A stretch of DNA of 64,000 nucleotides from an uncultured Methanosarcinales archaeon. GTDB taxonomy: Archaea > Nanobdellota > Nanobdellia > Woesearchaeales > GW2011-AR15. The notes beneath the pieces are model-generated. The model was not told where the DNA came from and ran no database searches. It saw only the letters and a list, made by a program, of their open reading frames with translations. A program made the position numbers and the translations under genes. Location: positions 35,407 through 99,406 of the forward strand of contig CAYTWW010000004.1 in NCBI GenBank assembly GCA_964441565.1, read 5' to 3'. Below are positions 33,214 to 59,426 of this stretch, in pieces (the first letter of the stretch is position 1; every line of letters starts with the position of its first letter).

Positions 33214-33987
33214 ATGGATCCAATCAGGGACTACACAAAAGAGAAGGTGATCTATGTGTCTAGAGGTGACTGGGGAGAAGAGCCTTCGACGATAGTCTGG
33301 AAAGGTCTTTCTCCTGGCATGGTGCCTGTCGCGATAAAAAGGACAAAGGATAGATCAGGCTACAGGCGCGAGAGAGATGCTCTCGGAAGGCTCACAGGCT
33401 ACCCTAATATCGTCCAGATGGTAGATTCCTTTCATGAGGATCCATGGTATTACATGATTACAACATACGAAGGAGAGAAGGACCTTCCGCATTGCAAGGA
33501 TAGCTTGGGTCTTCCGGATATGCTCCAGCGGATGTCTAAGATATCATATGCCCTTGATCACACCCATAAGTGCGGGATAGTGCATGCCGATGTGAATCCG
33601 GTGAACATCCGGATCAACGGCAGCACGACCACTTTGATAGACTTCGACCTGGCTAGGGGTCTCTATATGCCCATCCTTACTATCGGTCTTGAAAAACCCC
33701 TTTACTATTGGTCAGCCAGGGACAGGAACTCCATCATCACCCTGGCAATGCCAAGACTGGATATACACTCTGTCGGAGCCACTATCGATAATTTCGCAGG
33801 TGATCTGTTGTATGGCGAATGTTGGCATGGGTTCCTTCACTCCCACAGCAAAGAACCCAGGGGAGCGGATGCAGAAAAGCTTTCAAGACTGCTTCATAGG
33901 ATCATGGAAGAGACGAAGACTGCCTCTGACCTGGCTCACCTTCTGGAGGATTCATCAGGTAATCCTGCATTCACGAGGCTATCATGA
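33214..33987 (+). CDS. Protein-kinase-like fold protein (ePK/Kdo-WaaP lipopolysaccharide kinase-like)
   Basis: Catalytic loop HKCGIVHADVNPVNIRI (HxDxxxxN) and DFDLA (DFG-equivalent). Confidence 0.6.
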   Translation: MDPIRDYTKEKVIYVSRGDWGEEPSTIVWKGLSPGMVPVAIKRTKDRSGYRRERDALGRLTGYPNIVQMVDSFHEDPWYYMITTYEGEKDLPHCKDSLGLPDMLQRMSKISYALDHTHKCGIVHADVNPVNIRINGSTTTLIDFDLARGLYMPILTIGLEKPLYYWSARDRNSIITLAMPRLDIHSVGATIDNFAGDLLYGECWHGFLHSHSKEPRGADAEKLSRLLHRIMEETKTASDLAHLLEDSSGNPAFTRLS

Positions 33988-35237
33988 ACGCATTCTATCA
34001 TCGGCCAGGAGAGGGACGGCCGATTATGGTAGTCAGCGCCAATATCGGCCTTGGTAATCCCAGGTTCCTTGATGCCCTTTGCAGGCATCTGGCACTGCAG
34101 TCGACAAGGCCTGTCACAGGAATATTCGCAGATGACTTCAATCTTATAACTTCCAGGCTTTCAGAGAAATTCCTCAGGAGTCCTCATCGGGAGAAAGCAA
34201 GGACTGGAGACGAATCCTACAACACATTGGAAGGATATCTGAGGAGCAGAGGAGAGCTCGGTGCAGCAAATATCGCGAAAGCTCGGCTTGGTACAGATGC
34301 AGTGTTTGGACCATGGGCTGCATGGGCTGCGAAGCAAAGTATGGATGTCATCGGTACACAGGAGCTTCCGCTGGCATGCCTGGCAAGCAGGATGGAGGGA
34401 AAAGACATCCATCTCGGCCTGTATATCGCAGACACTATCGAGAAGCCAGCAGTCCATAGGATAGTCCCTCACCTTGATGCCTTGTGGCTCACATCTGGCT
34501 ATGATAGCGCGTTTGGAGGATACAGGGAGTTCCTGCCCGCGTATCAGAAAGGCGACCTGCTATCGATGTTCTCCAGCCAGCCGATCACAGGCACGATCCT
34601 CCCTCCTGAGATTGCGGAAAAAAGAGGGGAGAATTACATAAAGAGATGGGCTGAGATAGATAAGGTCATCTCAGGAAAACAATCACTTGAGGTCTGCATC
34701 ATCTCCTCAGGCTCCGGGATCAATCATGGCTGTGCCTATGATATCCTGGGTTCCCTTGAAGGCTTATCCGGAGTGAACATCAACGCCATCGCGACACAGC
34801 CTGTGGATGTGCCTTTATATTCAGCGTTGGATGGTCGGCTTGTCAGGAATCCCAACTCCAGCTATGCAGACAAGCATCAATTGATAGATGCATCCTATGA
34901 GATGCTCCAGAGATGCCATCTGGCCATAATCAGCCCAGGAGAGCTGGCCTCGATCTGCGAGGCTCTCGGGATACCATTCCTGATGATGAAAGGACGTGGA
35001 TTCAATGAGCTGCACAACTCCCAGGTCTATGAAGGTTTCTGCACAGGCATCCCGCTGCCTGATGCAAGCAAGGTTGGACAACTTATAAGATGCCTGGTCA
35101 ATCCGGATGATCCTCAGATCTACAAATTCAGAGAGGAATATCAGACAGATGGATATAGGGCAAGGAATGGATCACCTGACAAGGCATACACCCTTCCTTC
35201 CCAGGGTGTGACAAAGCTGCTTGAGAGCTTCATATAA
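33984..35237 (+). CDS. Putative GT-B-fold glycosyltransferase (MurG/MGDG-synthase-like), overlapping the kinase gene by ATGA
   Basis: Two Rossmann-like halves (MVVSANIGLGNPRFLDAL… and …AIISPGELASICEALGIPFLMM…). Low-confidence family call. Confidence 0.35.
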   Translation: MNAFYHRPGEGRPIMVVSANIGLGNPRFLDALCRHLALQSTRPVTGIFADDFNLITSRLSEKFLRSPHREKARTGDESYNTLEGYLRSRGELGAANIAKARLGTDAVFGPWAAWAAKQSMDVIGTQELPLACLASRMEGKDIHLGLYIADTIEKPAVHRIVPHLDALWLTSGYDSAFGGYREFLPAYQKGDLLSMFSSQPITGTILPPEIAEKRGENYIKRWAEIDKVISGKQSLEVCIISSGSGINHGCAYDILGSLEGLSGVNINAIATQPVDVPLYSALDGRLVRNPNSSYADKHQLIDASYEMLQRCHLAIISPGELASICEALGIPFLMMKGRGFNELHNSQVYEGFCTGIPLPDASKVGQLIRCLVNPDDPQIYKFREEYQTDGYRARNGSPDKAYTLPSQGVTKLLESFI

Positions 35238-35253: not shown

Positions 35254-35694
35254 TCATCCTGCTCTCTTTGCGAGAAATCCGCCTATGCCTGCTAGCGCAG
35301 CCAATGCCCCAAGTGTGCCGAACTCAGGCGCATCCGGGATCTCATCTCCGCAGAGCGTGATATGGCTGATATCCTTGTTATCAAGGTCGCTCTTGTGAGA
35401 AGTACCTGAAGATCCGCCTGCATAGGTGTAGTAGTTCTGACCTCCTTTAGCTAATGCACCGTTCGCTCCCGGGCTTGATGTCCACAACGCAGTGGTTGCA
35501 TTGCCATCGATGCTCACCTCATAGCCGGATCTGACACCTTCTTCGCTGACCATGTATGAGTTCCCTGCCCACTCCCATTTCACGATGCCGAAGTCAAATC
35601 CCCTATCGATGCACTCTGAATCAGGAGAACCGACCTTGGCCAGACCACCAGAAGCAAGCATAAAAAATATCACAACCATCAGGATTTTCTTCAT
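35254..35694 (-). CDS. Secreted PEF-CTERM sorting-signal protein
   Basis: Signal peptide MKKILMVVIFFMLASGGLA. C-terminus …DAPEFGTLGALAALAGIGGFLAKRAG* (PEF motif, hydrophobic helix, basic tail). Confidence 0.8.
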   Translation of the reverse strand: MKKILMVVIFFMLASGGLAKVGSPDSECIDRGFDFGIVKWEWAGNSYMVSEEGVRSGYEVSIDGNATTALWTSSPGANGALAKGGQNYYTYAGGSSGTSHKSDLDNKDISHITLCGDEIPDAPEFGTLGALAALAGIGGFLAKRAG

Positions 35695-35728
35695 TTGACC
35701 ACCTCTTTGAAATAAATAAAAGAAAAGA

Positions 35729-36322
35729 TCAATTCTTCTTTCTCTTGACAGAAAGATAAGCGCCAGCTCCGGCAAGCACAAGTGCTGCTCCGACTGTGCC
35801 GAACTCAGGAGCCTCGCCGTCAGGTGTTGGCTCGCTTATGCAGTATCCTCTCACTGCATCTACTTCGACAGCATCGTTCCAATCGTCGCTCTTGATCTTG
35901 ACATATCTTACTGACTGATAGGATGTGAAAGCGATAGATAGCTCGTCATCCCCCTTTCCATCTGTCGATCCGACATACTCCCATCCTGCGTTAGGCTGGT
36001 TTGATACATAGATATCCACATCAAACTCACGTGAGTTGTCCTGATAGACCTTGAAGTCGAATCCAAGCCTGTCCCAGACCTCTTCTCCTTCTCCCATATC
36101 CAGGACGATGTATGATCCTGCCTTGTTCAGATAAGCGTACCTGTTGTCATCCTCTCCGACAGCTTTCTGTGCATTTGTCACTGAACCGCTTGTCACTGCT
36201 ACTGCATTGGCATAAGCGATCTCATCATCTCCTGCCCAGTAAGCTCCCTTAGGGCAGCTGTGTGCCAGCACGCTTGTGGCGAGCAAGGCGAAGACAGCCA
36301 TTATCACGATTGATTTCTTCAT
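35729..36322 (-). CDS. Secreted PEF-CTERM sorting-signal protein
   Basis: GGAGG RBS, signal peptide MKKSIVIMAVFALLATSVLA. C-terminus …GEAPEFGTVGAALVLAGAGAYLSVKRKKN*. Confidence 0.8.
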   Translation of the reverse strand: MKKSIVIMAVFALLATSVLAHSCPKGAYWAGDDEIAYANAVAVTSGSVTNAQKAVGEDDNRYAYLNKAGSYIVLDMGEGEEVWDRLGFDFKVYQDNSREFDVDIYVSNQPNAGWEYVGSTDGKGDDELSIAFTSYQSVRYVKIKSDDWNDAVEVDAVRGYCISEPTPDGEAPEFGTVGAALVLAGAGAYLSVKRKKN

Positions 36323-36502
36323 GTTTTTTCCTCCACGGGGACGCATTGATTGTATGTTCCCCCTGATTAGGAGTTATTGAAGTGGAGCTATTATATATAC
36401 TTTTCGGAAATGTTATTACTTTGGAATAGTACCATGTTATGATGTAGTCTTGATAGAGAATCAGCATTGCCTATTTACAAATTAAGAATGAGCAAAAAAA
36501 AA

Positions 36503-36994
36503 TTAATTCTTCCTCTTCCTGGCAGCATATACGCCAGCGACTGCGAGGAAAGCACCTGCTCCGAGCACGGTGAACTCAGGGATGAATGCTGTACCAGTCT
36601 CCTGGACCTTGACATTATCTCCTTCCATGCCATTCACGACATAAGCGAATGATCCGCCCATGGCGTTTTCTGTCTCGAGCATGATGACTCCGCATCCATT
36701 CTCATTGGTAGGTGTGGTTACGACTGTAGCTTTGAAGACATTTGTATCAGTATCTACTGCATCAAAGCAATCAGCGTCGTCGTTTCCGTCAAAGCAGTAG
36801 TCAGTGATGACCAGTGGCATACCAACAATAGGTGTTGATCCTTCAACATCGTTTTTATAGATGCATGCATCTACATAGACGGTGTCATCTGATTCCATGC
36901 CAACATCATACGGATTCAGGATTATCTCTGTTCCTGCAAGAGCAGTCGACACCATGACGAGTGCCATTGCCATAAAAGCCATTGTCTTATTCAT
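36503..36994 (-). CDS. Secreted Cys-rich PEF-CTERM sorting-signal protein
   Basis: GGAGGT RBS, signal MNKTMAFMAMALVMVSTALA. C-terminus …TAFIPEFTVLGAGAFLAVAGVYAARKRKN*. Confidence 0.8.
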   Translation of the reverse strand: MNKTMAFMAMALVMVSTALAGTEIILNPYDVGMESDDTVYVDACIYKNDVEGSTPIVGMPLVITDYCFDGNDDADCFDAVDTDTNVFKATVVTTPTNENGCGVIMLETENAMGGSFAYVVNGMEGDNVKVQETGTAFIPEFTVLGAGAFLAVAGVYAARKRKN

Positions 36995-37145
36995 GTTTCT
37001 TGACCTCCAAAAGGGATTGTGATTACTGTATATTGTGATTATTACCCCCTATATTTGGTTAGATAACTCCTAAGTTATATATAAACTTTTCCGTTATTCA
37101 TTAGTTAGTGACAATATCATATGTCGTAATATTTATGCACAGTTC

Positions 37146-37736
37146 CTACCAGAATTGGAAGCTCTGCGTATAGACGACAAAGAATCCAAGTGCGAGATTC
37201 GCCACAGCATGCGCTATTATGCATGGACCGATGCTTTTCCTTTTGAAATATAGGAGATTCAGAAGAGCTCCTGTCAAGAGGCCGGCCAGCCATCTCGTAT
37301 GAGAGAAGCCGAAGAACAGAACTGTGATGATGAAGCTTGGAAGTGTAAAACCTGGCTTGACCTTCCTCCAGTCCTTATCAATTATCCATCTGAGCAGGAA
37401 TGACCTTGTGAAGAACTCCTCAACTACAGGAGCAAGGACCACACCTGTCAAGAGCTTCAGAGCGATGTCCAGGGATGTGTAATCATATATCACATCTGGT
37501 CCGGTCTTTGGATAGAAAGGATCTAGGAGAACCCAAAGCGCGAAGATCGCGATTCCCAGCGCTACTGCGAGCACATCGAACGTGATCCTGAACTTAAGAT
37601 CCCTCCTGTATATATATAGACATACAGAGACTGCAAGTATCTTGAAGATCAGGGCCACTGTCAGGTTTCCAGTCAGATAATGAGCTAGAGGGAATGAGAA
37701 CAGGTAGACTGCGAATGTCACGATGAGAGGTATCAC
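37146..37736 (-). CDS. CPBP-family (CAAX protease / Abi, PF02517-like) intramembrane metalloprotease, candidate sorting protease for neighbouring PEF-CTERM proteins
   Basis: 196 aa, about 6 TM. All three CPBP motifs are present in order: EExxxR (VVEEFFTRSFLL), FxxxH (FGFSHTRW), HxxxN (IAHAVANL). GTG start, with a TATA ATTTTATATAGG ~25 nt upstream (37756-37767). Confidence 0.75.
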   Translation of the reverse strand: MIPLIVTFAVYLFSFPLAHYLTGNLTVALIFKILAVSVCLYIYRRDLKFRITFDVLAVALGIAIFALWVLLDPFYPKTGPDVIYDYTSLDIALKLLTGVVLAPVVEEFFTRSFLLRWIIDKDWRKVKPGFTLPSFIITVLFFGFSHTRWLAGLLTGALLNLLYFKRKSIGPCIIAHAVANLALGFFVVYTQSFQFW

Positions 37737-37797
37737 AACTATATGTTAGGAAATCCTATATAAAATGGTTTCTGTCGACAGTCTATTTGGCAGCTAA

Positions 37798-37819
37798 TTC
37801 ACTATCTAGCAATAGTGAA
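37798..37819. promoter_or_regulatory. Perfect inverted repeat TTCACTAT-CTAGCA-ATAGTGAA in the divergent CPBP / PEF-CTERM intergenic region
   Basis: 8-bp arms with a 6-bp spacer, between the two divergent TATA boxes (37756-37767 and 37838-37848). Candidate operator. Confidence 0.4.
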
Positions 37820-37876
37820 AAACATAGATTTAAATATAGCGGATGTTTTTGCCATCTTCATCAAGGGGGTAGACCT

Positions 37877-38353
37877 ATGAAAAGAACAATAATCCTGTTC
37901 ATGCTCATGATTGCTTCCGTAATGGCGGAAAGCATCCAGCCTATGGCATGCGATCCATTCGCCCCATCGGCAGAATTCGAAGAGGGAGCAGACATCTGCT
38001 TCTACGGCACAGGCTTTGATGAGCCAGTCGACCTTGCTCTGAGGGACAAGGCCACAGAAGAGGAGGTAGGGACCATAATCGATGCTGATGTCGACAATGG
38101 TGTCCTGAGCACTGTCTTCTCAGGCAGGTTCTTCGAGAATGTGAAGGCTGGCATCTACAGGCTCTTCATCAATCTCAGAGACAGAGACCTTGAGTACTCT
38201 GAAGACATCGTAGTGAGAGGCCAGATGGCTGATGACGATGACGATGATGACGATGATCCGACTGATCCTTCAGTCCCTGAATTCGGGACGATAGCTGCGG
38301 GCCTTGGCCTTATTGGCGCTGGAGCATATGCTGCAAGGAGGCGAAGGATATGA
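37877..38353 (+). CDS. Secreted PEF-CTERM protein with poly-Asp (D9) acidic tract
   Basis: GGGGGT RBS, signal MKRTIILFMLMIASVMA. …GQMADDDDDDDDDPTDPSVPEFGTIAAGLGLIGAGAYAARRRRI*. Confidence 0.8.
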   Translation: MKRTIILFMLMIASVMAESIQPMACDPFAPSAEFEEGADICFYGTGFDEPVDLALRDKATEEEVGTIIDADVDNGVLSTVFSGRFFENVKAGIYRLFINLRDRDLEYSEDIVVRGQMADDDDDDDDDPTDPSVPEFGTIAAGLGLIGAGAYAARRRRI

Positions 38354-39291
38354 GAAAGATACTTTTCATACTAGCTCTGCTCTCAGCTGCAGTGTTGGCA
38401 GATTGCGACCAGGTCGCTTGCCTCAATCAGGCTGAGAAAGCATGGTGCTCCCCAGGAGACTCTGCCTGTGTATTCTCTGAATGCGGCTTTTTTGAAGAGA
38501 GCGATGCAGATGGAGACAGCTGGACAGACAGCTGCGATGCATTCCCACAGGATGCTTCAGAGCAGGTGGATTATGACGCAGATGGCTGCGGCCACAACTC
38601 AGACATCGACGATCTCGACCATTCTGAAGTCTCTGGCTGTGAGGTCATCACAGACGATGATGACGATGATGACGATGACGACACAGAGGATACAGACGAG
38701 GATGGCATCGAAGACGAGTCTGACAACTGTCCAACTGTCGCAAACCCTGACCAGGCAGATAATGACGGAGATGGCCTAGGCGATGCATGTGACAACTGTC
38801 CTTCGACATCAAATCCTGACCAGGCAAATGCTGACGCAGACGGAACAGGCGATGCTTGCGAAGTTGTCGAGAAGAAAGAAAGCATCAGCTCAGGGAGCGG
38901 AGGAAGCGGACTAGGCACAGGCATCTGCATGTCAAGGGCATGGAGATGCGGTGAGTGGTCAGCATGCGAAGAAGGAACGCAGACAAGGACCTGCGATCAG
39001 ATCAACTTCGACTGCAAGGGTGACGAGAACAAGCCAAAGGAATCGCAGACCTGCGAGATGCCTGTCGAAGAAGTGATCCAGACACAGGACCAGCAGTCTG
39101 AAGAGACGGAAGAAGAGACCCAGGAGGAGACGGCAACAGTCACTCCTGTAAAGGAAGATAGTGCAGGGCTTTCAGGCATCACAGGAAATGTGATAGACGT
39201 GCCTAGGGGAGAATTCAACCCATGGATCCTGCTTCCAGTGTTCCTCGGCGGACTCTTGCTGATCTTCCTGTTCTTCAGGAAGAAGAACTGA
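38350..39291 (+). CDS. Secreted Cys-rich thrombospondin-type-3-repeat (Ca-binding) surface protein with poly-Asp tract and a C-terminal TM/basic anchor
   Basis: Signal MRKILFILALLSAAVLA. TSP3 repeats DNCPTVANPDQADNDGDGLGDACDNCPSTSNPDQANADADGTGDAC. D10 tract. C-terminus …NPWILLPVFLGGLLLIFLFFRKKN*. Confidence 0.7.
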   Translation: MRKILFILALLSAAVLADCDQVACLNQAEKAWCSPGDSACVFSECGFFEESDADGDSWTDSCDAFPQDASEQVDYDADGCGHNSDIDDLDHSEVSGCEVITDDDDDDDDDDTEDTDEDGIEDESDNCPTVANPDQADNDGDGLGDACDNCPSTSNPDQANADADGTGDACEVVEKKESISSGSGGSGLGTGICMSRAWRCGEWSACEEGTQTRTCDQINFDCKGDENKPKESQTCEMPVEEVIQTQDQQSEETEEETQEETATVTPVKEDSAGLSGITGNVIDVPRGEFNPWILLPVFLGGLLLIFLFFRKKN

Positions 39292-42109: not shown

Positions 42110-43174
42110 GTGCGATTCAATCTTATGATACTTGAGATATCGCTCCTGATCCTCTCGATCTTCCTCCTCTCTTCAGGGAGCGACGTATTTGTAGATGCTG
42201 TCAGCAGGCTGGCTAAGAGGCTTGGTGTCTCAGAATTCATAATCGGGCTTACCATGGTCGCATTCGCGACAAGCCTTCCTGAGCTTGCTTCGACCATCGT
42301 GTCCGCATACCAGGGCCATCATGGCATTATCGTAGGAAATGTCATCGGCAGCAACCTTGCGAATATCGGACTGATCCTGGGCCTCTCGGCTATGATCTCG
42401 ACTCTCAAGGTAGACACAGAGGTCCTGAAGAGGGATGGGTACATCATGGGATTCGCGACTCTCTTGTTCTATATCTTCGCCTTGAATAAAAAGATCTCAA
42501 GGTTGGAGGCGTTCTTCTTCATCCTCATCTATTTCGCCTACATACTGTTCCTCCTGAAATCGAAGAAGCTTTTCAAGGAGTATCACTTCAAGGAGTTCTT
42601 CGATTACTTCCTGAAGTTCGAATACATCAATACACTCTATGAGATAACCCGTCCTCCTGTCCTGCCTGACAGGAGGATCTTCCTCAAGACAGAAAGGCAG
42701 GCAGAGAGCTACGTGAAGAAGAAGATGATCAAGGATGGTCTCCTTGCTTCCGCATCCATTGTCATGGTTGTGGTGGGAGCCAATCTTCTGGTGAGCAATT
42801 CCATCTGGCTCGCAAGCCTGATCGGTATCCCTCAGGCTTTTGTCGGGCTCACAGTGGTCGCCATAGGCACTTCCCTCCCTGAGCTGACTGTCTCTCTATC
42901 TGCAGCAAGGAAAGGTTTCGCGAACATGGCTGTAGGGAACATCCTGGGAAGCAACATCGCAAATATCCTCCTCATCATGTCAGTCGGGTCTATCGTATCC
43001 CCTGTCGAGATATCTGTCACCAATCTTGTGTTCGTGATACCGTTCCTCTTCTTCCTGTCAAGCCTCCTTATGTTCTTCATCAGCCTGGATGGGAAGATAG
43101 ACAGGATGAAAGGCAGCGTGCTGATGATCCTCTACATCGTATTCATCTGCATCTCATTCATCTACGGGCTCTAG
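42110..43174 (+). CDS. Na+/Ca2+ (cation/Ca2+) exchanger, CaCA family (YrbG-like)
   Basis: Two alpha-repeats: GTSLPELASTIVSA… and …GTSLPELTVSLSAA…, each preceded by GSNLANIG / GSNIANIL. Confidence 0.85.
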   Translation: MRFNLMILEISLLILSIFLLSSGSDVFVDAVSRLAKRLGVSEFIIGLTMVAFATSLPELASTIVSAYQGHHGIIVGNVIGSNLANIGLILGLSAMISTLKVDTEVLKRDGYIMGFATLLFYIFALNKKISRLEAFFFILIYFAYILFLLKSKKLFKEYHFKEFFDYFLKFEYINTLYEITRPPVLPDRRIFLKTERQAESYVKKKMIKDGLLASASIVMVVVGANLLVSNSIWLASLIGIPQAFVGLTVVAIGTSLPELTVSLSAARKGFANMAVGNILGSNIANILLIMSVGSIVSPVEISVTNLVFVIPFLFFLSSLLMFFISLDGKIDRMKGSVLMILYIVFICISFIYGL

Positions 43175-43926
43175 ATGAAGAGAAGGAAGATCCCGAGGAG
43201 GAAGCAGTAGGCTGAGAAGGCATAGAACATATTCTTCTTGATTATCCTGATCAGGAGCCTCATGGAGACAAATCCAGTGACTATGGCTGTCATCATGCCT
43301 GCGAGCGTCGGTAGCAAATCCAGGCCTGCGATGCCTGGAAGCTTCAACACTGTCGCTCCGAGGACAAGGGGGATGAACAGGAGGAACGAGAACCTTGCTG
43401 CCTCTTCCCTGTCAATTCCCAGGAGCAGCGCTGAAGAGATTGTGGATCCTGACCTTGATACTCCGGGGAGGACTGCCAGGGCCTGGATTGCCCCGATCGC
43501 GACAGAGCTCGCGAAGGTCATCTTCTCATGGTTGACAATAGGATACCTTGACAGGTATAATAGGGCTGAAGTGAGGAGCAGCCCATAACCGACGATCCTA
43601 AGGTCTGAGAACGCAGAATCTATGAAATCTCCGAGGAAGACTCCCGCAAGAGCTGCAGGGACTGTCGCGATGCATAGGAGCAGGAACATCTTAAGTGCCT
43701 TCGGTTCCCTCCTGAGTATGCCGACCAAAAGCCAGTGGATATCTTTCCAGAAGACGACAAGCACTACAAGGAGGCTAGCGATATGGAGGGCGACATCGAG
43801 CGCCACTGCTTCCCCCACGCCAAGGAAGTGCTGGACAATCGCAAGGTGGCCGGATGAGCTTATAGGCAGCCATTCAGTGACTCCCTGGACTGCGCCAAGC
43901 AATATCGCCTCCCAGACAGTGACCAT
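43171..43926 (-). CDS. uppP: Undecaprenyl-diphosphatase (BacA/UppP)
   Basis: MVTVWEAILLGAVQGVTEWLPISSSGHLAIV… is the canonical UppP N-terminus. It has a second …SRSGSTIS… motif. Confidence 0.9.
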   Translation of the reverse strand: MVTVWEAILLGAVQGVTEWLPISSSGHLAIVQHFLGVGEAVALDVALHIASLLVVLVVFWKDIHWLLVGILRREPKALKMFLLLCIATVPAALAGVFLGDFIDSAFSDLRIVGYGLLLTSALLYLSRYPIVNHEKMTFASSVAIGAIQALAVLPGVSRSGSTISSALLLGIDREEAARFSFLLFIPLVLGATVLKLPGIAGLDLLPTLAGMMTAIVTGFVSMRLLIRIIKKNMFYAFSAYCFLLGIFLLFI

Positions 43927-43947
43927 GCATAAGAAGAGGCGGGAGGA

Positions 43948-44343
43948 CTATAAAAAAGCTTCGCGGCGTCTCTTCATCATGAAATGGATCGACCTGCCTA
44001 GGACATAGAATGCCAGGGCACCAAGAGCGCCTGCGAGCATGTCCTTCCTTGAGAAGACCCTGTGGTCTGTCAGCGTGCGCTGCAAGATCTCTATGGCGAC
44101 TGATGCGATTCCAGAATACAGGAGCGCTCCTTCGAATGGCCATCTGAACCTGAGCTCAAGGAGCAGGAGGGAGAGAAGCAGGCTGGTCCCGAAGAATGCG
44201 AGGAAATGCATAGGATACCCAGAGAACACATCTTCACCTATTCCCGGGCTTATCCTTGAGAGCGACGCATAAAGTATGAATGCCTGGCTGGATATGAATG
44301 CTATCGACAGCAGGACTCTTCTCATCGGCTGTGGGAGCGACAT
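43948..44343 (-). CDS. VanZ-like family membrane protein
   Basis: 131 aa, 4 TM. …HFLAFFGTS… and …EILQRTLTDHRVFSRKDMLAGALGA… match the VanZ motifs. Confidence 0.6.
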   Translation of the reverse strand: MSLPQPMRRVLLSIAFISSQAFILYASLSRISPGIGEDVFSGYPMHFLAFFGTSLLLSLLLLELRFRWPFEGALLYSGIASVAIEILQRTLTDHRVFSRKDMLAGALGALAFYVLGRSIHFMMKRRREAFL

Positions 44344-52210: not shown

Positions 52211-55200
52211 CTACATTCTGAGCAGCTCGTAGACCTGCTTCTCCTGCCGAATCATCTTCAGGGATGAGAACAGCTCAGACCTGGTGCTGCATGGGATCTC
52301 CAGGCAGTGCTGGTCAAGGAATGACCTGATCTCTCCACTGTTCCTGTAATACTCGTACTCATTGTCAGCCATGTATGGAAGCGCCAGATACAAGCCCTCA
52401 AGGCTATGGAGAGGGAGCCCTGACAAGAGCTGCAGAGGCATCTCAGCCTTCTTCCGGAAGTCCAGGTTTATCACATTCTCAGGCAGTTTGAGGACAGAGC
52501 TCTTCTGAGGTTCGAATTCTCCCAGATAGATATTGTATAGCACCCTGTACATCTCGAGCCTGGAGTCAGATGACATGAGGACCTTTGCGACATCAGGCCT
52601 CCCGACAGACTCTGAAACCCACTGCTGAACAAGGCTTGTGTTCGAGAGCATCCTGAAGCTGTCCTCGCTCATCGCATGCAGGTGTCTGGCAAAGTCATAG
52701 AGAGTATGGGCCTCGCTGCCCTCGGGAAGGACAAGAGGCCTTGCTGCCTTCTTTGTCATGAGCTTTCCGTCTGCTGGCCTTTTCTTGTGTCCCCCTCTGC
52801 CGAAGATGAAGAAGAGTATCGAGCAAAGTAGACATACGACCAAAAAGCCGATTATCGCATCAGCGTGGCTGTTCTTTGCCTGCTTCGGCTCTTCGATCGA
52901 GGAGGACTTCTCTTCGAGCCTCACTTCCTGCTGCTCAGGTACGACAGGTATGGAAGGCTGCTCCATCACAGGAGGACTTGATGTCTTTTCGATTATCTCT
53001 GGTTCTGGCTCTGCTTTTACCACAGATGAACGGCTGAAGCTGCCTCCACCGCCGCCACCACCGCCGCTGCCTCCGCTGCCTCCGCTGCCGCCACCACCGC
53101 CGCCGCTATCACCGCCGCTTTCCTCCTCTTCGACAGCAGCAGTTGCAAGGCTGTATTCAGTGAAATGAGGCACATCAAAGCTGACATTCTCACCTAGCGA
53201 GATGTTCTCGCATATCGGGCAAGGCAGGCCGTCTTTTAGTATGACAGGGTCTGCGAGAGTGACATGGTAGAATGTAATCCTTGCGCTGCGGTTGAGGACT
53301 GGCACCAGTGAGGAATTGATGTATACCTTCCTATCCTCTATCCCGACAAATGAATCCAGGTCGACTGCAGTGACATTGACCTCTCCTCTCAGATTTATCC
53401 TGCCATGGTCAGATATCTCTAGCGTGATCCCCTCGAAAGTCAGGTTGTTCCTATTGAAGTCAGTAGTATGTCCATCAAACTTAGATGCATTCGGATAACC
53501 GGGATCATTGCTCCTTGTTCGTAGGTTGTGGACACCTGAGCTGTAAGCATTCCCATATCTATCAGTCCCATTCACCTTCCAATAATAGTCAGTGTCATTC
53601 TCAAGACCAGTGGCTGTCATCTGGTGGCTTGTGGCCTTTGCTGTGGAATGGAGATAGCTGGGAGCTGACAGGTCCGCATATGTCGAGATGAAGAGGCTAG
53701 CATTCCCTGATTCGTTCAGCGTAAGAGATACCCTGAACCTGTCTGATGAGATGGAGTTGTTCGATATCGCTATGATCGCAGGCGGAGTGATGTCCTCTGG
53801 CTCATTCTCAAGAGTCCGGAAGAAAGAGCTGTTGGTTATGCAGTTATTGTGCCTGTCGCACGTCGTCACATTGAAGTCATAAATAGCGTTGGCTGTCAGG
53901 TCTTGAAAAAAAAAAGTATGCACAGTAGTATAGACTGAGTCGACGACTGTGCCAAGGATCGTCCAGATGGTAGAGTTCGTGGCCTCATTTGTGATGATTG
54001 TGATCTGGCCAGTCTGGTTTGTCGTGATATTCTGATGGATCAACTCAGGATAGCTGATATCCTCCCCGGAACCGGTGATCACATAGTAGTTCGAGTTCTG
54101 GCCGGTTGTTATGTCGAAAGTCACCATGTTGCCTGAGACTGAGAGGACAGGCACGTCAGATCCATCGTCCTTCGTGATTATGAATCCCTGGGTCAGCGAA
54201 AGGTCAGAGCAGTCCACAGTCACTCTCCTTGTCTTAGGTACATCGATATACGGATCCCGCTCCATCGTGTTGGCTGTGAGGACTATTCTTTCTGACGAGA
54301 CCCTGAGATGTGCCTGTGTAGGTTGGTCTGATTCGAATAAAGTTTTTTCTCCGTCATGTATGTATGTTGCATTGAATGCAGCTATCTCTCCAGCCGAATA
54401 TGCGAGCGCCCATCCATCAGTCGACTTGCCTGCATAGGATACTGTTCCATCATTGTCTCCGTCAAAGAGGACTGTGTTCCCTCCGTCAATGAGGCCTTTC
54501 TCAGTCCCATTGATAGCAGTCACTCCCTCTTCAGAGAAGGTGTTCCAGTGATGCGAGAATACAAGGTCCAGGGAAGGATCGCCGATGTCTGTGTAGTAAT
54601 AGCGCCTCCCATACTTGCCGAGGCCTCTGGACCCGCCTGAACAGCTTGTCTTGGAGAAGCAGTAATTTACATTGGTCCTCCCTCCGCCGAAATACACTGG
54701 CGAATCAGAATAGATGAGCTGCGTGGACAGGAAGATGTCCTGGCCAGTCGCAGCATTAGTCCTCCTCGCAGTCCAGTTGAGCCCGCTCACAGTAGATGCG
54801 AACTCATCATCGATGTTGATGAAGTTGTGATAGATGCGGTCCCCCTGCGTCACACCTGACACCTTTGTCCTCTTGACCACTGTGTCGCCGAACTTCACGA
54901 AATACTCCTTCACAGGATCAGCCTTGTAGTACGGACGCCACACGAATGCGCCGGCGAGATTCGCGTCCGCAGTACCCATGTAATCCTCGATGTCGCCGCC
55001 GTACTGCAGTGGAAACTGGCGGAAATTAGGATAATCGGCAGGATAAAGTGCTGGATCACATGTTTTCATTCCATAATACTGGTTTTGTCCATGTTCTCCA
55101 CATTCAGACCTGTAATAGCTTACTAACCCCTCGACATTCTGTGTGTCGTTCGCTAAGCTGATTCCATTTTTCCAGAAATCTGCCCTTGTATCATCTTCAT

Positions 55201-57613
55201 ATGGGACTTGCTCGTAATCAATAAATGGCTCCCCCAGGATATAAAGATAATAGCCCTGAGCTTGGGAGTGTCCCATCCCTCTTTCCTCACCACCATCAAT
55301 CATCAGAAAAGTGTCATTGGAGAAAGTATAGTTCGTCCTCACAATCAAGGTGTCTTCTGCATTGTCAAATACGATTTTTGGCATAGCAGACTCTGGAGCC
55401 TCTTCAGAATCAACTGAGTCAAGGATCTGCTTGTAGAGATATGAGAGAGGATATGTTCTCATGGCACTCGATTCAGATATGTTGAAAGCATACTGTCTAA
55501 TCCAAAGTGATGTCTTCTTAGTGTTCAGGTCATCGCACATCAGAGCAAAGAAAAGCGGAGTATCCCACCCTGTGAACAAGCTGTCGTCGATCTTCTGATA
55601 GCTGTTTGAATCTCCTTTTTGCACTGACCTAAGGTAAAAAGGCTCATCATTTCTGGAATCTGACCCTTTGTAGTTACCATCAAGCAGCATAACAATATGC
55701 TCTCTTGCCATAGCACAAAAGGCATTATTATACTCTTCAATATCTATGAGCGAGTTCCGATATCTCATCCAAAGGACATCAGCTAGGTGAGGAAAAGCAT
55801 AAGTTCTGTAACCATATCCTTCCTGATACATATGCCAGGAGTCATTCTTGTATGACTGAAGTATCTTGTCTTCCCTGTCCATCCATTCATCTGGTATGTT
55901 CTTGCCCCAGTACTGGTCGCTGAGATTATGGATAAGAGTAGGGTTCTCGGCATACTCTCCGATGAAGCTATAGCAGAATCCACCCATCCCTGATCCAAAA
56001 GCCAATCCATTGTCCCCTGCAATCAAAGCGTCATTGTCGAGATCAGGGCGATCTCCGGGATGGTTAACGAACAGCTGGCAGATATCATGAGCTTTTCGCG
56101 AAAGATCCTCCTGCTCCTCTTGTGTAAAATAGGGAACCATCATATCATAGGCAATAGCAACATGAAGGTATTGATGGAACGCCTGGTTGGAAGTGAATGA
56201 CGAGAGGCTCCTGTTCAGCCAGCCATGTATGTGATCACTTGCAACCTTACAATTGTTTGTGTTTTCATATCCATTATGCATACAACTCATTGCAGCCTGG
56301 CGTGCATTCACAGCATAGGGGTCAGCGCTGTCTCCTGAATATCCTTCATTCCAGTCGGAGGATACAAAGTTATTAATCCAATTGCAGGAGTCATAAGCCA
56401 CCTCGTTTTCTGGATCAGAGCAAAAAGGGATGTAGGAATTATACTCATCAAGTGAGAAATGAAACCATGGCCTGTCCTTGAAGGGGATGTAGATCCTTTG
56501 GGCATTGTTATCCTCAACATCCTCCTCTACACTATCGTCAGTATCAATCTTAACAAATCCTGAATGCCATCCATATGACTTCTCCCAATTGCATATTATC
56601 TCTGTTTCTTCCATCCCTGAAAGAGAAAGGCTGTCTTCACATAAAACAGTTCCATCCATATCCACTTTGTAGACGAAGGGTCCGGTTGGCTCTGATCCAG
56701 CGTTCCTTATAATGATTGAGAGAGGCATTTCACCTATTGGATCTAGAAGATTACTTCCAGTGTAGTCTCGTGGCAAGGTGTACCTGATAGATTTAACATA
56801 AATATCTTTTTCAGGAGGCGAACCAAGTCGTTCCTCATTGTAAATTGCCTGGACATCTAATGTAGAGAAATTGCTTCTTCTCCAGATTCTCAGCTCATCT
56901 AGGTAACCTACAATATCCTGAGAAAATATCCCTGCTCCAACTCTTAGCATGCTCCCAGAAGTCATATTTGGGGTACCGAAGGGTGTGCTTGAATTCACAA
57001 CCAGTTCTCCGTTCTTCCATACATAGCTCCTCTGTTTGTCATATTGTAGGAAGTAGAAAGTCCATTGATCTGTAGGTGACTCCTGAGTATCCCCTGGAAA
57101 AGCTTTCACTTCACCTCCTTGCGCCCATACATGAAGGTTCATCCCATAGCCTGCTTCAGTCACATGCAGGTATTTAGGCCCTCCACAGCATCCTTCATGC
57201 CCGATATCCATAATGTCAAAAGAGTTTGCTCCTGAGACCGAAATAGTTGGATATAACCAGAAAGCCACTGCAATGCCGTCCGAAAGCTGAAATTTACTGG
57301 ATGAGTTGAGATAGTCAGCACCACCATCAGCAGAGAAATCAGCGCACCCGTTAATCTTGGATTGTGCTCTATCAAGCCATTCACCTGAGCGAAATGGAGT
57401 AAACTCGTGATCGTAGCCGGAATAATCCGTCCATGGCGATGAAGAATCATCGAAAGTCAGGTTCAGTACAAGATCAGATGAAAATGAGGAGCTAGCGGGA
57501 AAAATCACAAAGGCATCAGGTTTGAAACCAAGGAGATACACCACAGCCAGGCATGCACTGACAAGAAAGATGAGTGCAAATATTTTGAATATCCTTATTC
57601 CCCCTGCCATCAA
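52211..57613 (-). CDS. Giant (1800 aa) type-I membrane surface protein with an N-terminal LamG/ConA-like domain, a polysaccharide-lyase-like (heparinase II/III-like) central region, a Gly/Ser linker, a single TM and a ~190-aa cytoplasmic tail
   Basis: N-terminal signal/anchor MMAGGIRIFKIFALIFLVSACLAVVYL. …EEEESGGDSGGGGGGSGGSGGSGGGGGGGGSFSR… linker. TM AIIGFLVVCLLCSILFFIF followed by a basic stop-transfer. Domain calls are inferred from sequence patterns only. Confidence 0.5.
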   Translation of the reverse strand: MMAGGIRIFKIFALIFLVSACLAVVYLLGFKPDAFVIFPASSSFSSDLVLNLTFDDSSSPWTDYSGYDHEFTPFRSGEWLDRAQSKINGCADFSADGGADYLNSSSKFQLSDGIAVAFWLYPTISVSGANSFDIMDIGHEGCCGGPKYLHVTEAGYGMNLHVWAQGGEVKAFPGDTQESPTDQWTFYFLQYDKQRSYVWKNGELVVNSSTPFGTPNMTSGSMLRVGAGIFSQDIVGYLDELRIWRRSNFSTLDVQAIYNEERLGSPPEKDIYVKSIRYTLPRDYTGSNLLDPIGEMPLSIIIRNAGSEPTGPFVYKVDMDGTVLCEDSLSLSGMEETEIICNWEKSYGWHSGFVKIDTDDSVEEDVEDNNAQRIYIPFKDRPWFHFSLDEYNSYIPFCSDPENEVAYDSCNWINNFVSSDWNEGYSGDSADPYAVNARQAAMSCMHNGYENTNNCKVASDHIHGWLNRSLSSFTSNQAFHQYLHVAIAYDMMVPYFTQEEQEDLSRKAHDICQLFVNHPGDRPDLDNDALIAGDNGLAFGSGMGGFCYSFIGEYAENPTLIHNLSDQYWGKNIPDEWMDREDKILQSYKNDSWHMYQEGYGYRTYAFPHLADVLWMRYRNSLIDIEEYNNAFCAMAREHIVMLLDGNYKGSDSRNDEPFYLRSVQKGDSNSYQKIDDSLFTGWDTPLFFALMCDDLNTKKTSLWIRQYAFNISESSAMRTYPLSYLYKQILDSVDSEEAPESAMPKIVFDNAEDTLIVRTNYTFSNDTFLMIDGGEERGMGHSQAQGYYLYILGEPFIDYEQVPYEDDTRADFWKNGISLANDTQNVEGLVSYYRSECGEHGQNQYYGMKTCDPALYPADYPNFRQFPLQYGGDIEDYMGTADANLAGAFVWRPYYKADPVKEYFVKFGDTVVKRTKVSGVTQGDRIYHNFINIDDEFASTVSGLNWTARRTNAATGQDIFLSTQLIYSDSPVYFGGGRTNVNYCFSKTSCSGGSRGLGKYGRRYYYTDIGDPSLDLVFSHHWNTFSEEGVTAINGTEKGLIDGGNTVLFDGDNDGTVSYAGKSTDGWALAYSAGEIAAFNATYIHDGEKTLFESDQPTQAHLRVSSERIVLTANTMERDPYIDVPKTRRVTVDCSDLSLTQGFIITKDDGSDVPVLSVSGNMVTFDITTGQNSNYYVITGSGEDISYPELIHQNITTNQTGQITIITNEATNSTIWTILGTVVDSVYTTVHTFFFQDLTANAIYDFNVTTCDRHNNCITNSSFFRTLENEPEDITPPAIIAISNNSISSDRFRVSLTLNESGNASLFISTYADLSAPSYLHSTAKATSHQMTATGLENDTDYYWKVNGTDRYGNAYSSGVHNLRTRSNDPGYPNASKFDGHTTDFNRNNLTFEGITLEISDHGRINLRGEVNVTAVDLDSFVGIEDRKVYINSSLVPVLNRSARITFYHVTLADPVILKDGLPCPICENISLGENVSFDVPHFTEYSLATAAVEEEESGGDSGGGGGGSGGSGGSGGGGGGGGSFSRSSVVKAEPEPEIIEKTSSPPVMEQPSIPVVPEQQEVRLEEKSSSIEEPKQAKNSHADAIIGFLVVCLLCSILFFIFGRGGHKKRPADGKLMTKKAARPLVLPEGSEAHTLYDFARHLHAMSEDSFRMLSNTSLVQQWVSESVGRPDVAKVLMSSDSRLEMYRVLYNIYLGEFEPQKSSVLKLPENVINLDFRKKAEMPLQLLSGLPLHSLEGLYLALPYMADNEYEYYRNSGEIRSFLDQHCLEIPCSTRSELFSSLKMIRQEKQVYELLRM

Positions 57614-58638
57614 TCCTTAAAAGAAGTATGCTGTATAAAAAACTTGCTTAAAATACCCCTGGCAACACCCTCAGCGTATCTCGCTGAAACAGCAATTAGA
57701 AGTGCAGCGATGAACATCAGGATCATTCTAACAGGGAAGGGGAATATTGATACTGCAGAAGTAACAATTGAAAAAACTGTGAAATGAGTTAAGAAAAGAT
57801 AAAGAGAAAGCTTTCCAATCTCTTCCAGCAAGGGTGCCCGCATATCTCTGAGAAAAGAATAGAGTAATAGAAACAGGCTGATTGTAAGTGCTTGCTGACC
57901 AATGATCAGGAAAAGTGAGTCTACAAGTGTTGAAATGATTGATAGAATAAGAATGCAAAAGTATAGAGAAACCTGTTTTGATGAAATCAGCCTGGAGGAA
58001 AAATGAAAAACAAGTACCCCAAATACAAGCTCTGATAATCTTGAAAAAATAAGAACCCTATACCAGAGGTCTGAGCTGGGATTAGAAAGAAAAATCAGCA
58101 TTCTAGTGATAATTGACAATGCAATGCAGCCAATGCCTGTCGCTCTAGGATACTTTCTATAAAATCCGACAAGACCAGGGAAGAATATTATGATGGAGAG
58201 TAAAAGAGTGATGTACCACCAACTGCCATCAACAGCACCGGAATACTGAAGGAAAAAACCATGTATTCCGAGAAGATGTAGCAGAATTGCGCCTGGCGTT
58301 AGGTAAAGTCTTCCTTTGAGGATAAGAGGGAATACTATGAACATCAGGAGAAGCGTCCAATACAGGGGTAGAATACTAAGTATCCTTTTTCGTAGCCAGT
58401 TACGATAATCATTGTTCCTTGAGAAATTGACTCCTGCAACAATGATGAATAACCCCACACCTGCATATCCGAGTGACATAATAGTCATCAGGAGTGAAGT
58501 AGTATTTCCTCTTAAAAAATCCAGTAACAAACCCTTGGCCAGAGGCCAATTATAAGACATACCAAACGCATGGAACAGCATCACCAAAAGGATTGCTATA
58601 CCCTTAATCTTGTCTATTGTGTGATCTCTTCCTGTCAC
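57610..58638 (-). CDS. Acyltransferase family 3 (membrane O-acyltransferase, OatA/WecH-like)
   Basis: …IDKIKGIAILLVMLFHAFG… is the typical AT3 N-terminus. 10 TM. Confidence 0.75.
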   Translation of the reverse strand: MTGRDHTIDKIKGIAILLVMLFHAFGMSYNWPLAKGLLLDFLRGNTTSLLMTIMSLGYAGVGLFIIVAGVNFSRNNDYRNWLRKRILSILPLYWTLLLMFIVFPLILKGRLYLTPGAILLHLLGIHGFFLQYSGAVDGSWWYITLLLSIIIFFPGLVGFYRKYPRATGIGCIALSIITRMLIFLSNPSSDLWYRVLIFSRLSELVFGVLVFHFSSRLISSKQVSLYFCILILSIISTLVDSLFLIIGQQALTISLFLLLYSFLRDMRAPLLEEIGKLSLYLFLTHFTVFSIVTSAVSIFPFPVRMILMFIAALLIAVSARYAEGVARGILSKFFIQHTSFKD

Positions 58639-59351
58639 TTCTGAACCTTAATCTTACCTAGCCTGAATCTGAGTTCCGCAGAGTTTTTGATATAGTCTCT
58701 TACAGTCTTCCCTATCTTTACCGTGCTACCTGAATCATCTATCCAGTCAACAGGAATCTCTTTTATCTTGAAACCTATTTTTTCAGCAATCAATAGCAGC
58801 TCAGTATCAAAGAAGAATTCATTGTCTTTTATGAATGGTTCCAGTTTCATGAACACTTCTTTTCTGACTCCTTTAAAACCGCATTGCATATCATGTATCT
58901 TTGTAAAGTAGAAAGCCTTAATGAGAGCATTATACCCCCTTGATAAAACCTCTCTCTTGAATCCTCGCTGTACAACTGAACCTTTGATTAGTCTGGATCC
59001 CACAACAATGTCTGCTCCCTGTGAAAATTCTCTCAGCATGCACGGAAACGCATCCAGACTTGTCGATAGGTCTATGTCCATGAATGTCAGTATGTCGCAA
59101 TCACTCTCCTTCCATACCGTTCTGAGGGCAACTCCCCTTCCCTTTATAGGGATCCGCACATATTTAACAAATGGAAATTCCCTTGAGATCCTTTCCATCA
59201 CTGCGGGAGTATTATCCGTGGAGGCATTATCAGCAACCACTATCCGGCATACAGTAATGTGCATTTTTTTGAGAAATTCAATCGTAGACCTGATGCTCTT
59301 TTCCAATGTTTCTGCTTCATTATATACCGGAAAAGTAATGAGGACATCCAT
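58635..59351 (-). CDS. GT2 glycosyltransferase (dolichyl-phosphate hexose transferase-like)
   Basis: MDVLITFPVYNEAETL…, …VVADNASTDNT…, …DIDLS… (DxD). Confidence 0.8.
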   Translation of the reverse strand: MDVLITFPVYNEAETLEKSIRSTIEFLKKMHITVCRIVVADNASTDNTPAVMERISREFPFVKYVRIPIKGRGVALRTVWKESDCDILTFMDIDLSTSLDAFPCMLREFSQGADIVVGSRLIKGSVVQRGFKREVLSRGYNALIKAFYFTKIHDMQCGFKGVRKEVFMKLEPFIKDNEFFFDTELLLIAEKIGFKIKEIPVDWIDDSGSTVKIGKTVRDYIKNSAELRFRLGKIKVQK

Positions 59352-59426
59352 AATGCGTAAAAAGAGAATACAATATAAAAGGGTTTCGAATTAGTGACTT
59401 TGATAGTAAAATTATAATATTAGTGA

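Follow-up and report, generated by a model that had tools for sequence, protein, structure and literature searches.

The 64-kb stretch of DNA analyzed here (the window) is best explained as harboring a cell-surface protein sorting cassette of a Woesearchaeota (DPANN) archaeon, in which a gene for a TIGR03008-family CPBP protease lies amid genes for Sec-exported client proteins. Five open reading frames had been singled out in a sequence-only reading of this DNA, and all five were found at the positions given below. Four encode Sec-exported proteins, each with a signal-peptide-like N terminus and a C terminus made up of [IVA]PEF[GT], a Gly/Ala-rich helix, and a basic tail; the reading of a common tripartite signal was confirmed. 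PEF-type tails were found on no further open reading frame in the 64-kb window or in the contig extensions. The window is also rich in envelope genes, including those for glycosyltransferases, flippases, BacA, and VanZ.

Client 1 (35254–35694, minus strand; 146 amino acids, also in the JGI gene call) consists of a signal peptide and a small domain with a conserved ISHITLCG motif, and members of its family were present in nine CPBP loci. Its tail is IPDAPEFGTLGALAALAGIGGFLAKRAG, with the signal given as APEFGTLGALAALAGIGGFLAKRAG. Client 2 (35729–36322, minus strand) has 197 amino acids when started at MKKSIV, compared with 205 in the JGI call, and carries a weak F5/8-type-C-like domain; its tail is GEAPEFGTVGAALVLAGAGAYLSVKRKKN (signal given as APEFGTVGAALVLAGAGAYLSVKRKKN). 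Client 3 (36503–36994, minus strand; 163 amino acids) is the conserved first client after the CPBP gene; its orthologs, found in 13 loci, lie downstream of that gene by a median of 161 nt. A GGAGGT sequence precedes its ATG by 8 nt, a TATA-like box, AAAGTTTATATATA, is located about 90 nt upstream of the start at 36994, and the tail reads AFIPEFTVLGAGAFLAVAGVYAARKRKN (signal given as IPEFTVLGAGAFLAVAGVYAARKRKN). Client 4 (37877–38353, plus strand; 158 amino acids) has a signal peptide, nine consecutive Asp residues, and the tail PSVPEFGTIAAGLGLIGAGAYAARRRRI (signal given as VPEFGTIAAGLGLIGAGAYAARRRRI). The start of the next gene (38350–39291, plus strand) overlaps client 4 by 4 nt, and the two are therefore probably co-transcribed. 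It encodes an acidic thrombospondin-type-3-repeat surface protein of 313 amino acids with Asp runs, which, as had been read, ends differently from the others, in a plain C-terminal transmembrane segment followed by RKKN and without a PEF motif; its membership of the sorting system is uncertain. Similar TM-anchored, non-PEF neighbors also occur in loci L002 and L005.

Amid the PEF-tailed genes lies a single gene (37146–37736, minus strand) for a CPBP (Rce1-like) glutamic intramembrane protease with seven predicted helices. The product, 196 amino acids from a GTG at 37736 (191 amino acids from 37721 in the JGI call), scored 57.4 bits against PF02517 (gathering cutoff 22.4), and the motifs attributed to it are intact: EEFFTR, FGFSH, and HAVAN, corresponding to EExxxR, FxxxH, and HxxxN. 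Residues E106, E107, R111, H146, H176, and N180 were invariant among 25 homologs, and homologs with invariant catalytic residues span 33%–61% identity; the protein is predicted to be catalytically competent. A PDB sequence search gave no match. Matches came by fold comparison only, which confirmed the CPBP fold, and the best of them was SpdC from the SpdC-SagB complex of Staphylococcus aureus (PDB: 6u0o).

Among curated family models, the protein passed TIGR03008 (pepcterm_CAAX; 121.5 bits, equivalog cutoff 81.05), a family that we take to be defined by its context, namely by co-occurrence with an exosortase-family enzyme in one genome. It aligned to residues 328–513 of the 516-residue exosortase E model TIGR04162 (XrtE), the protease half, at a score below the cutoff (69.3 bits, cutoff 150), and it was also below the cutoffs of the myxosortase models Mrt_core (NF040914; 16.8 bits, cutoff 100), MrtJ (37.7 bits, cutoff 75), and MrtS (20.3 bits, cutoff 130). 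The CPBP and client 4 genes diverge from an intergenic region (37737–37876) that contains a TATA-like sequence, TTTTATATA, about 25–33 nt upstream of the CPBP start, and it is plausible that the CPBP gene has a promoter of its own.

Mapping the neighborhoods of CPBP homologs, a check proposed in the sequence-only reading, bore out its view of a PEF cluster organized around the CPBP. Across 34 DPANN archaeal loci with this CPBP, which amount to about 485 kb in addition to the window, 90 PEF tails were found in 26 loci, mostly directly downstream of the CPBP gene, compared with none in 79 control DPANN loci (490 kb); the association of PEF tails with this CPBP is far beyond chance. The linkage persists across lineages whose other neighbor genes differ. 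The CPBP gene and its PEF-tailed neighbors have stayed together as a unit in DPANN archaea, which makes a processing relationship very likely, and we are fairly confident that the CPBP is the dedicated processing partner of the PEF clients. No description of this DPANN arrangement was found in the searchable literature.

An alternative is that the CPBP is a scaffold, a regulator, or an immunity-type protein (like SpdC or bacteriocin-immunity Abi proteins) that accompanies the clients by synteny only, within an envelope gene island. The best structural match, SpdC, is described as a non-proteolytic partner of SagB, the window is envelope-gene-rich, and 8 of the 34 archaeal CPBP loci have no PEF tails, 4 of them with ample flanks. 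This reading is nevertheless improbable: unlike SpdC, the window CPBP retains every catalytic residue; the invariance of these residues at 33%–61% identity is unlike inactive CPBPs; the PEF linkage survives changes of other neighbors across lineages; and there are no bacteriocin-like genes nearby. It is still less probable that the tails belong to the classical PEF-CTERM type and depend on an archaeosortase C (ArtC) encoded elsewhere in the genome, with the CPBP being incidental. The motif does contain P-E-F, and two related exosortases (long or 333 amino acids) gave weak partial matches to the ArtC model TIGR03762 (34.7 and 35.6 bits, cutoff 100), but none of the exosortase relatives found here reached the ArtC cutoff. 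In addition, the literature found to mention PEF-CTERM covers Methanosarcinales and ANME archaea, not DPANN, and this reading offers no explanation for the conserved linkage to the CPBP. We rejected the classical system on the model scores of the exosortase relatives and of the tails themselves, described next.

The lineage consensus of the tail is [ED]-[IV]-P-E-F-[TSG]-x-[IL]-[GA]-A, followed by a Gly/Ala-rich helix and then an Arg/Lys cluster. Across the 90 tails, the helix shows unusual conservation and a high Gly and Ala content, and no conserved Cys was found at positions −6 to +29; C[VS]PEF is confined to a small XrtE-like subgroup (L023, L027, and L035). The tails had been taken for PEF-CTERM signals, an assignment that the models did not support: none of eight tails matched the PEF-CTERM model TIGR03024, even at E ≤ 10, and scores against the PEFG-CTERM model TIGR04296 were 11.8–13.2 bits (cutoff 25), with only the PEFG letters covered. 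Scores against the PEP-CTERM model TIGR02595 (11.6–12 bits, cutoff 16) were also too low, the Pfam VPEP and the VPEID-CTERM models gave no match to the tails, and the MYXO-CTERM model likewise failed. Since the tails fail all of these curated models, the signal is a new variant. Scores of 19–22 bits against the LPXTG model TIGR01167 (cutoff 15.9) came from the helix and basic tail, and the motif is PEF, not LPXTG; we regard the match as a probable generic-tail false positive. The tails were below the cutoff of the Pfam LPXTG model.

No exosortase or archaeosortase was found in the window when all polytopic open reading frames were compared with NCBIfam and Pfam, no long-type exosortase was detected there by a local HMM built from DPANN long-type exosortases, and terminal-gene look-ups gave no PF09721 gene in the contig extensions. 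In total, about 80 kb of the organism's 86-kb contig had no exosortase-family gene, and neither ArtC nor ArtE was found in the contig. Elsewhere in the archaeal set, 9 of the 34 loci have an exosortase-family gene no more than 10 kb from the CPBP gene (a non-pacearchaeosortase type in 7), including long XrtE-like exosortase genes in 6 loci. The exosortase gene ends 8 nt before the CPBP start in L023 and 1 nt before it in L035, and L027 has an exosortase-GT-CPBP row; an exosortase gene abutting the CPBP gene resembles exosortase E divided into two genes. In L009, which belongs to the window's own CPBP clade, an ArtB/ArtE-like archaeosortase is located 2.2 kb from the CPBP gene with a PEF client alongside, and most loci of this clade have no exosortase-family gene within 10 kb. 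The earlier proposal of a CPBP "rather than an archaeosortase" was thus upheld for about 80 kb of the contig, but it is unproven for this organism and wrong for part of the family because of the TIGR03008 and XrtE matches and the nearby exosortase genes.

The 79 control loci came from a metagenome scan for archaeosortases, in which all were of the pacearchaeosortase type, the one curated DPANN archaeosortase type, and none came from the JGI samples 3300023203, 3300023207, 3300021843, or 3300021561. They carry the recurrent tail FW[IL]I[AG]D, which the pacearchaeosortase seems to serve instead of PEF; with this different tail and with neither a PEF tail nor a CPBP gene in any of the 79 loci, the pacearchaeosortase was rejected as the PEF enzyme. 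The long-type HMM found no long-type exosortase in the 490 kb of control loci. A word-indexed search returned 6 long-type exosortases versus at least 42 archaeal CPBPs. In uncultured archaea, exosortases akin to the long type make up a large family, with 169 clusters at E ≤ 1e-30. GenBank accession proximity and one archaeosortase look-up placed CPBP and sortase genes in different MAGs and gave no link within one MAG. The fusion protein P0068 (PF09721 plus PF02517) adjoins a 60-amino-acid VPEID-CTERM protein, and a bacterial CPBP homolog in Kuenenia is 830 nt from a VPEP...RRR protein. As far as we know, all P-E-x and P-G-F tripartite signals named to date are paired with an exosortase or an archaeosortase. 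Fusions of EpsH to a CAAX protease were reported by Haft (2006), and the exosortase-CAAX protease link has been in print since then (PMC1569441).

We lean toward a PEF-type sorting cassette of DPANN archaea whose CPBP acts together with an exosortase-family enzyme, and on balance the CPBP probably needs such a partner. The clients cross the membrane via Sec, as their signal peptides show, and would then remain anchored through the C-terminal helix; the positive-inside rule predicts that the basic tail is cytoplasmic. The analogy with ArtA and exosortases, together with the neighbor genes in related loci, leads us to propose that a Cys-Arg-His transpeptidase of the exosortase/archaeosortase family would recognize and cut the PEF motif on the outer side of the membrane and hand the client to a lipid or glycan anchor. 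Its gene, beside the CPBP gene in some relatives, would lie elsewhere in the genome of the window organism. The CPBP may make a second, intramembrane step that trims the client or clears the remnant of the Gly/Ala-rich helix, a role for which we know of no experimental precedent. The window cassette would thus represent the CPBP-plus-clients half of a split system resembling exosortase E and VPEID-CTERM. Counterpoints to this partnership are that the client genes cluster with the CPBP gene, not with sortase genes, that no exosortase-family gene was found in about 80 kb of the contig or within 10 kb in most window-clade loci, and that archaeal CPBPs far outnumber long-type exosortases in the word-indexed search.

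It is possible, but in our judgment rather unlikely, that the Woesearchaeota-clade CPBP itself recognizes and cleaves the PEF tail, like a myxosortase and without an exosortase-family enzyme. Such recognition would be lipid- and cysteine-independent because the signal has no invariant cysteine. The tight, conserved order of CPBP then clients is consistent with this, as are the lack of an exosortase in the roughly 80 kb of contig and near the CPBP in most window-clade loci, and pacearchaeosortase loci that are unrelated to PEF tails. The unusually conserved tail helix also fits, and Gly/Ala-rich helices are typical of intramembrane protease substrates. Proof that CPBP enzymes can be sorting proteases comes from myxosortases, among which MrtX was established as a sorting enzyme by experiment and cleavage was lost in Cys-to-Ala/Ser clients (PMC11980579). 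However, known CPBP sorting systems all need an invariant, presumably lipidated Cys, and the window protein failed Mrt_core while passing the exosortase-linked TIGR03008. Exosortase genes are, in addition, operonic with the same CPBP family in other DPANN lineages, and absence from 80 kb is weak evidence for a genome of roughly 1 Mb, our own estimate for the lineage.

The favored partnership with an exosortase-family enzyme has its closest known counterpart in exosortase E. Besides the match of the window CPBP to the XrtE protease half, the long DPANN exosortases adjoining this CPBP family align best to the XrtE N-terminal half, and the tiny client proteins of long-exosortase loci have C[VS]PEF[ST] endings, close to V-P-E-I-D. 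In contrast, XrtE is an exosortase fused to a CPBP, whereas the genes here are separate and the window has the CPBP alone; its clients are archaeal, numerous, and 146–197 amino acids long. Close Woesearchaeota homologs are already named pepcterm_CAAX by NCBI, and bacterial TIGR03008 relatives occur near a PEP-CTERM protein and beside GAF/His-kinase, sigma-54 activator, TPR, and Bac_transf genes, as at the Desulfuromonas homolog locus. The bacterial members are about 228 amino acids long and have no flanking client arrays, whereas clients directly follow the CPBP in the archaeal clade, with the motif PEF, not PEP. Myxosortases (MrtX, MrtC, MrtP, MrtJ, MrtS, and MrtA) are likewise CPBP proteases genetically tied to tripartite C-terminal signals, and MrtJ, like the window CPBP, was identified via gene neighborhood, but the MYXO-, JDVT-, Synerg-, and CGP-CTERM signals need an invariant Cys for cleavage. 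ArtC/PEF-CTERM and ArtE/PEFG-CTERM share an archaeal P-E-F(-G), transmembrane helix, and basic tail, from which the Gly/Ala-rich helix, the lack of a PEF-CTERM match, and the sub-cutoff PEFG-CTERM scores set the present tails apart; we know of no account that pairs either system with a CPBP.

DPANN archaea have tiny genomes and rely on contact with host cells, so surface-protein display matters for their biology. The cassette defines a sorting signal outside the curated models and ties it to a specific enzyme; because no curated model recognizes the signal, current pipelines leave the tails unnamed or mislabel them as LPXTG. With the CPBP and clients packaged together and the exosortase adjacent, distant, or possibly absent depending on lineage, the family lends itself to a natural experiment on the role of the exosortases' CAAX-protease-like partner, a question that dates from 2006. 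Should the window's Woesearchaeota clade have lost its exosortase partner, leaving the TIGR03008-type CPBP alone to recognize and cleave the [IV]PEF tail, which we regard as doubtful, this would be the first CPBP-based C-terminal sorting that requires neither a cysteine nor a lipid mark, as well as the first in DPANN archaea, and CPBP sorting enzymes would extend past cysteine-dependent signals.

Six genes were identified by ORF reading between positions 35254 and 39291 of the window. The gene for a 196-amino-acid (aa) polytopic protein of the CPBP family of Rce1-like intramembrane proteases (37146–37736, minus strand) is followed on the same strand by three genes for small secreted proteins, hereafter clients (36503–36994, 35729–36322, and 35254–35694), and a fourth client gene (37877–38353, plus strand) diverges from it across a spacer of 140 nt. 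All four clients have signal-peptide-like N termini, and their C termini consist of [IVA]PEF[GT], a Gly/Ala-rich hydrophobic stretch, and KRAG, KRKKN, RKRKN, or RRRRI; these ORFs and tails bear out the sequence-only reading of four secreted proteins with a shared tripartite tail around a single polytopic protein. No PEF-type tail was found in any other ORF of the 64 kb window or in the neighboring parts of the contig. The sixth gene (38350–39291, plus strand), whose start overlaps the fourth client gene by 4 nt, encodes a 313-aa acidic protein with thrombospondin type-3 repeats and a plain transmembrane (TM) anchor that lacks the PEF motif, as had been proposed for this fifth neighbor. Predicted TATA-like boxes lie upstream of the CPBP gene and of the first client gene downstream of it (36503–36994). 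The 37877–38353 and 38350–39291 products contain uninterrupted stretches of 9 and 10 Asp, respectively; together with the thrombospondin type-3 (calcium-binding) repeats in the latter, these suggest calcium-binding surface proteins. Converging on the cluster is a gene pair (33214–35237, plus strand) in which a Ser/Thr protein kinase-like gene (257 aa) shares 4 nt with the gene for a 417-aa protein without a family match; this pair is not conserved in other CPBP loci.

The tails had been named PEF-CTERM, a name that did not survive comparison with curated definitions because none of eight tails matched TIGR03024 (PEF-CTERM) at E ≤ 10. The same eight reached 11.8–13.2 bits with the PEFG-CTERM model (cutoff 25) and about 12 bits with the PEP-CTERM model (cutoff 16), and the MYXO-CTERM cutoff was touched once, by the helix only. 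Apart from sub-threshold LPXTG, no Pfam C-terminal-signal model matched the tails. The NCBIfam LPXTG_anchor model (TIGR01167) gave 19–22 bits on the helix and basic tail, against a low cutoff of 15.9; this was read as a generic false positive. Automated pipelines may misname archaeal PEF proteins "LPXTG cell wall anchor domain-containing," which is an annotation risk. Judged by these scores, the PEF tail is an unmodeled variant signal.

The 196-aa protein matches the Pfam Rce1-like family PF02517 and passes the NCBIfam model TIGR03008 ("pepcterm_CAAX") with 121.5 bits against a curated cutoff of 81.05. It aligns to residues 328–513 of the 516-residue model for exosortase E (XrtE), an exosortase fused to a CPBP protease, and falls far under the cutoffs of the myxosortase models. 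Residues E106, E107, R111, H146, H176, and N180 are invariant in an alignment of 25 homologs. On these grounds, it looks like an active CPBP protease, and its subfamily is one already tied by curators to exosortase systems. The nearest named homologs come from Candidatus Woesearchaeota and Nanoarchaeota MAGs, and those of Woesearchaeota are already named "CAAX prenyl protease-related protein" by NCBI. An identical product (a 191-aa JGI gene call within the 196-aa ORF) is present on the 86 kb JGI metagenome contig Ga0255812_10557809. The gene content is of archaeal type, including V/A-type ATPase subunit I, NOG1, OapB/C, and TYW3.

The CPBP alignment was scanned against one genome per GTDB species, which returned 39 loci, 33 from DPANN archaea and 6 from bacteria. 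With the window included, 26 of 34 archaeal loci carry PEF tails (90 in total, with a maximum of 12 per locus), mostly in genes directly downstream of the CPBP gene; four of the eight archaeal loci without tails have a flank too short to judge. The tails share the consensus [ED]-[IV]-P-E-F-[TSG]-[TAV]-[IL]-[GA]-A-[GA]-L-A-L-x-G-A-G...[RK][KR]R[KR][KR], 24–28 residues from the Pro. One client family, including 36503–36994, occurs in 13 loci (median distance to the CPBP stop, 161 nt), and a second, including 35254–35694, occurs in 9. By comparison, a control set of 79 DPANN loci around pacearchaeosortase genes (490 kb) contained neither PEF tails nor a CPBP of the window's family. The proposed pairing of protease and clients thus recurs in the neighborhoods of CPBP relatives, and the association is real and specific.

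It had also been proposed that the cluster lacks an archaeosortase. This holds for the window and for about 80 kb of the 86 kb contig, where no exosortase or archaeosortase was found, but not for the family as a whole, because Pfam Exosortase_EpsH matched 9 of 39 polytopic CPBP neighbors in related loci. Six of the nine are of a long type (333–531 aa) that passes the exosortase/archaeosortase signature model and has its best partial match in the exosortase half of XrtE. The long-type gene stops 8 nt before the CPBP start in locus L023 and 1 nt before it in L035; in L027, the gene order is exosortase, glycosyltransferase, CPBP. Clients in these three loci are proteins of 75–81 aa ending in C[VS]PEF[ST] and resemble the 60-aa VPEID-CTERM protein adjoining P0068, a true exosortase-CPBP fusion (PF09721 and PF02517). 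A short ArtB/ArtE-like archaeosortase, adjoined by a PEF client, is encoded in L009, a locus of the window's own CPBP clade; L026 and L033 carry the curated "pacearchaeosortase." A long-type HMM had no match in the 490 kb control set; therefore, 6–7 of 34 loci with such a gene near the CPBP, depending on whether L009 is counted, is a clear enrichment.

Three of the six long exosortases (L023:8559–9992, L035:5053–6492, and L027:522–1940) have SSG instead of the catalytic CSG, with a Cys 3–4 residues upstream, which could indicate that Ser acts as the nucleophile, that the Cys has shifted, or that the enzyme is inactive. CSG is kept in L020, L037, and L013, and Arg and His are invariant in all six. 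According to an exhaustive profile search, the exosortase family to which the long type is related is large in uncultured archaea: at E ≤ 1e-30 it comprises 169 clusters, of which about 30 are full length and more than 100 are proteins of about 320 aa, and the members looked up are named "exosortase/archaeosortase family protein." The single member that was placed closes a row of glycosyltransferase genes and has no CPBP in its vicinity; exosortase genes can therefore lie far from their clients.

Pacearchaeosortase was considered as the PEF enzyme and rejected because no PEF tail occurs in its 79 loci and its large neighbors end in a different tail; it appears unrelated to PEF. Large proteins (500–1,680 aa) near pacearchaeosortase end in FW[IL]I[AG]D followed by a helix rich in Ile and Val and then a basic tail, which is probably its unmodeled cognate signal. 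The pacearchaeosortase genes occur as tandem paralog pairs (L053:1622–2696, L054:10001–11078, and L055–L133) that adjoin DUF7121 and ribosomal P1/L10/L1 genes.

We lean toward a split XrtE-like system in which an exosortase-family enzyme and the CPBP act on the PEF clients, because the CPBP belongs to TIGR03008, operonic exosortase-CPBP pairs occur in other DPANN lineages, and the PEF motif resembles PEP/VPEID signals. To our knowledge, no P-E-x signal has been named that lacks an exosortase-family enzyme, which points the same way. Published exosortase-CAAX protease fusions also argue for two enzymes (PMC1569441). That the CPBP sorts its clients alone, with no exosortase, is less likely, but it would fit the clustering of clients with the CPBP rather than with any sortase, the 80 kb without an exosortase, the position of most exosortase-linked CPBPs outside the window's clade in a neighbor-joining tree, and the proven sorting by CPBP proteases in myxobacteria (PMC11980579). 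However, cleavage by MrtX needs the client's invariant Cys (PMC11980579), which is carried by all four myxosortase-type signals and is absent from the PEF tails. A role for the CPBP outside processing is improbable, and a classical ArtC system is more improbable still.

Several other genes were observed in the window and related loci. In L002/L010:8792–9882, the CPBP is immediately preceded by BacA (polyprenyl-diphosphate phosphatase) and a VanZ-like gene; in the window, these genes (43171–44343, minus strand) are 5.5 kb away from the CPBP, a weak conserved synteny with lipid-carrier metabolism. Beside the CPBP of L037 (L037:10001–10510) is a gene for a 351-aa, 7-TM protein (L037:10576–11631, minus strand) with a weak C-terminal resemblance to protein-S-isoprenylcysteine O-methyltransferase (NF040696, 31 bits against a cutoff of 160), and one member of the set matched Pfam ICMT at 6e-06; the Rce1-like and ICMT-like pair, in this one locus only, recalls eukaryotic CAAX processing. 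Window positions 56000–64000 (GC 0.40–0.43 versus about 0.49 elsewhere) and their continuation, L046, are dense in glycosyltransferases and polytopic proteins, some of PMT_2 type, and also encode an acyltransferase and an asparagine synthase; they may represent a glycan island gained by horizontal transfer. The 1,800-aa product of 52211–57613 (minus strand), a candidate giant surface or S-layer-like protein, combines LamG-like and weak CARDB domains with a TM or signal at its N terminus and a single TM close to residue 1581, and it lacks a PEF tail. On a sister contig (L047:2524–7648), CheW/response-regulator, methyl-accepting chemotaxis, and PAS-sensor genes lie immediately to the left of the glycosyltransferase genes of the window; as far as we know, chemotaxis-type signaling genes are unexpected in a DPANN archaeon.

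A tripartite C-terminal signal with an exosortase- or CPBP-family enzyme is a known kind of system, and a curated name already exists for the protease family. The DPANN-wide [IV]PEF[TSG] signal, its tight packaging with a TIGR03008-type CPBP, and split XrtE-like operons in archaea were not found in curated models or the searchable literature. The cassette provides a tractable way to learn what exosortase-associated CPBP proteases do, and should the CPBP act on its own, the cysteine rule would have a notable exception.
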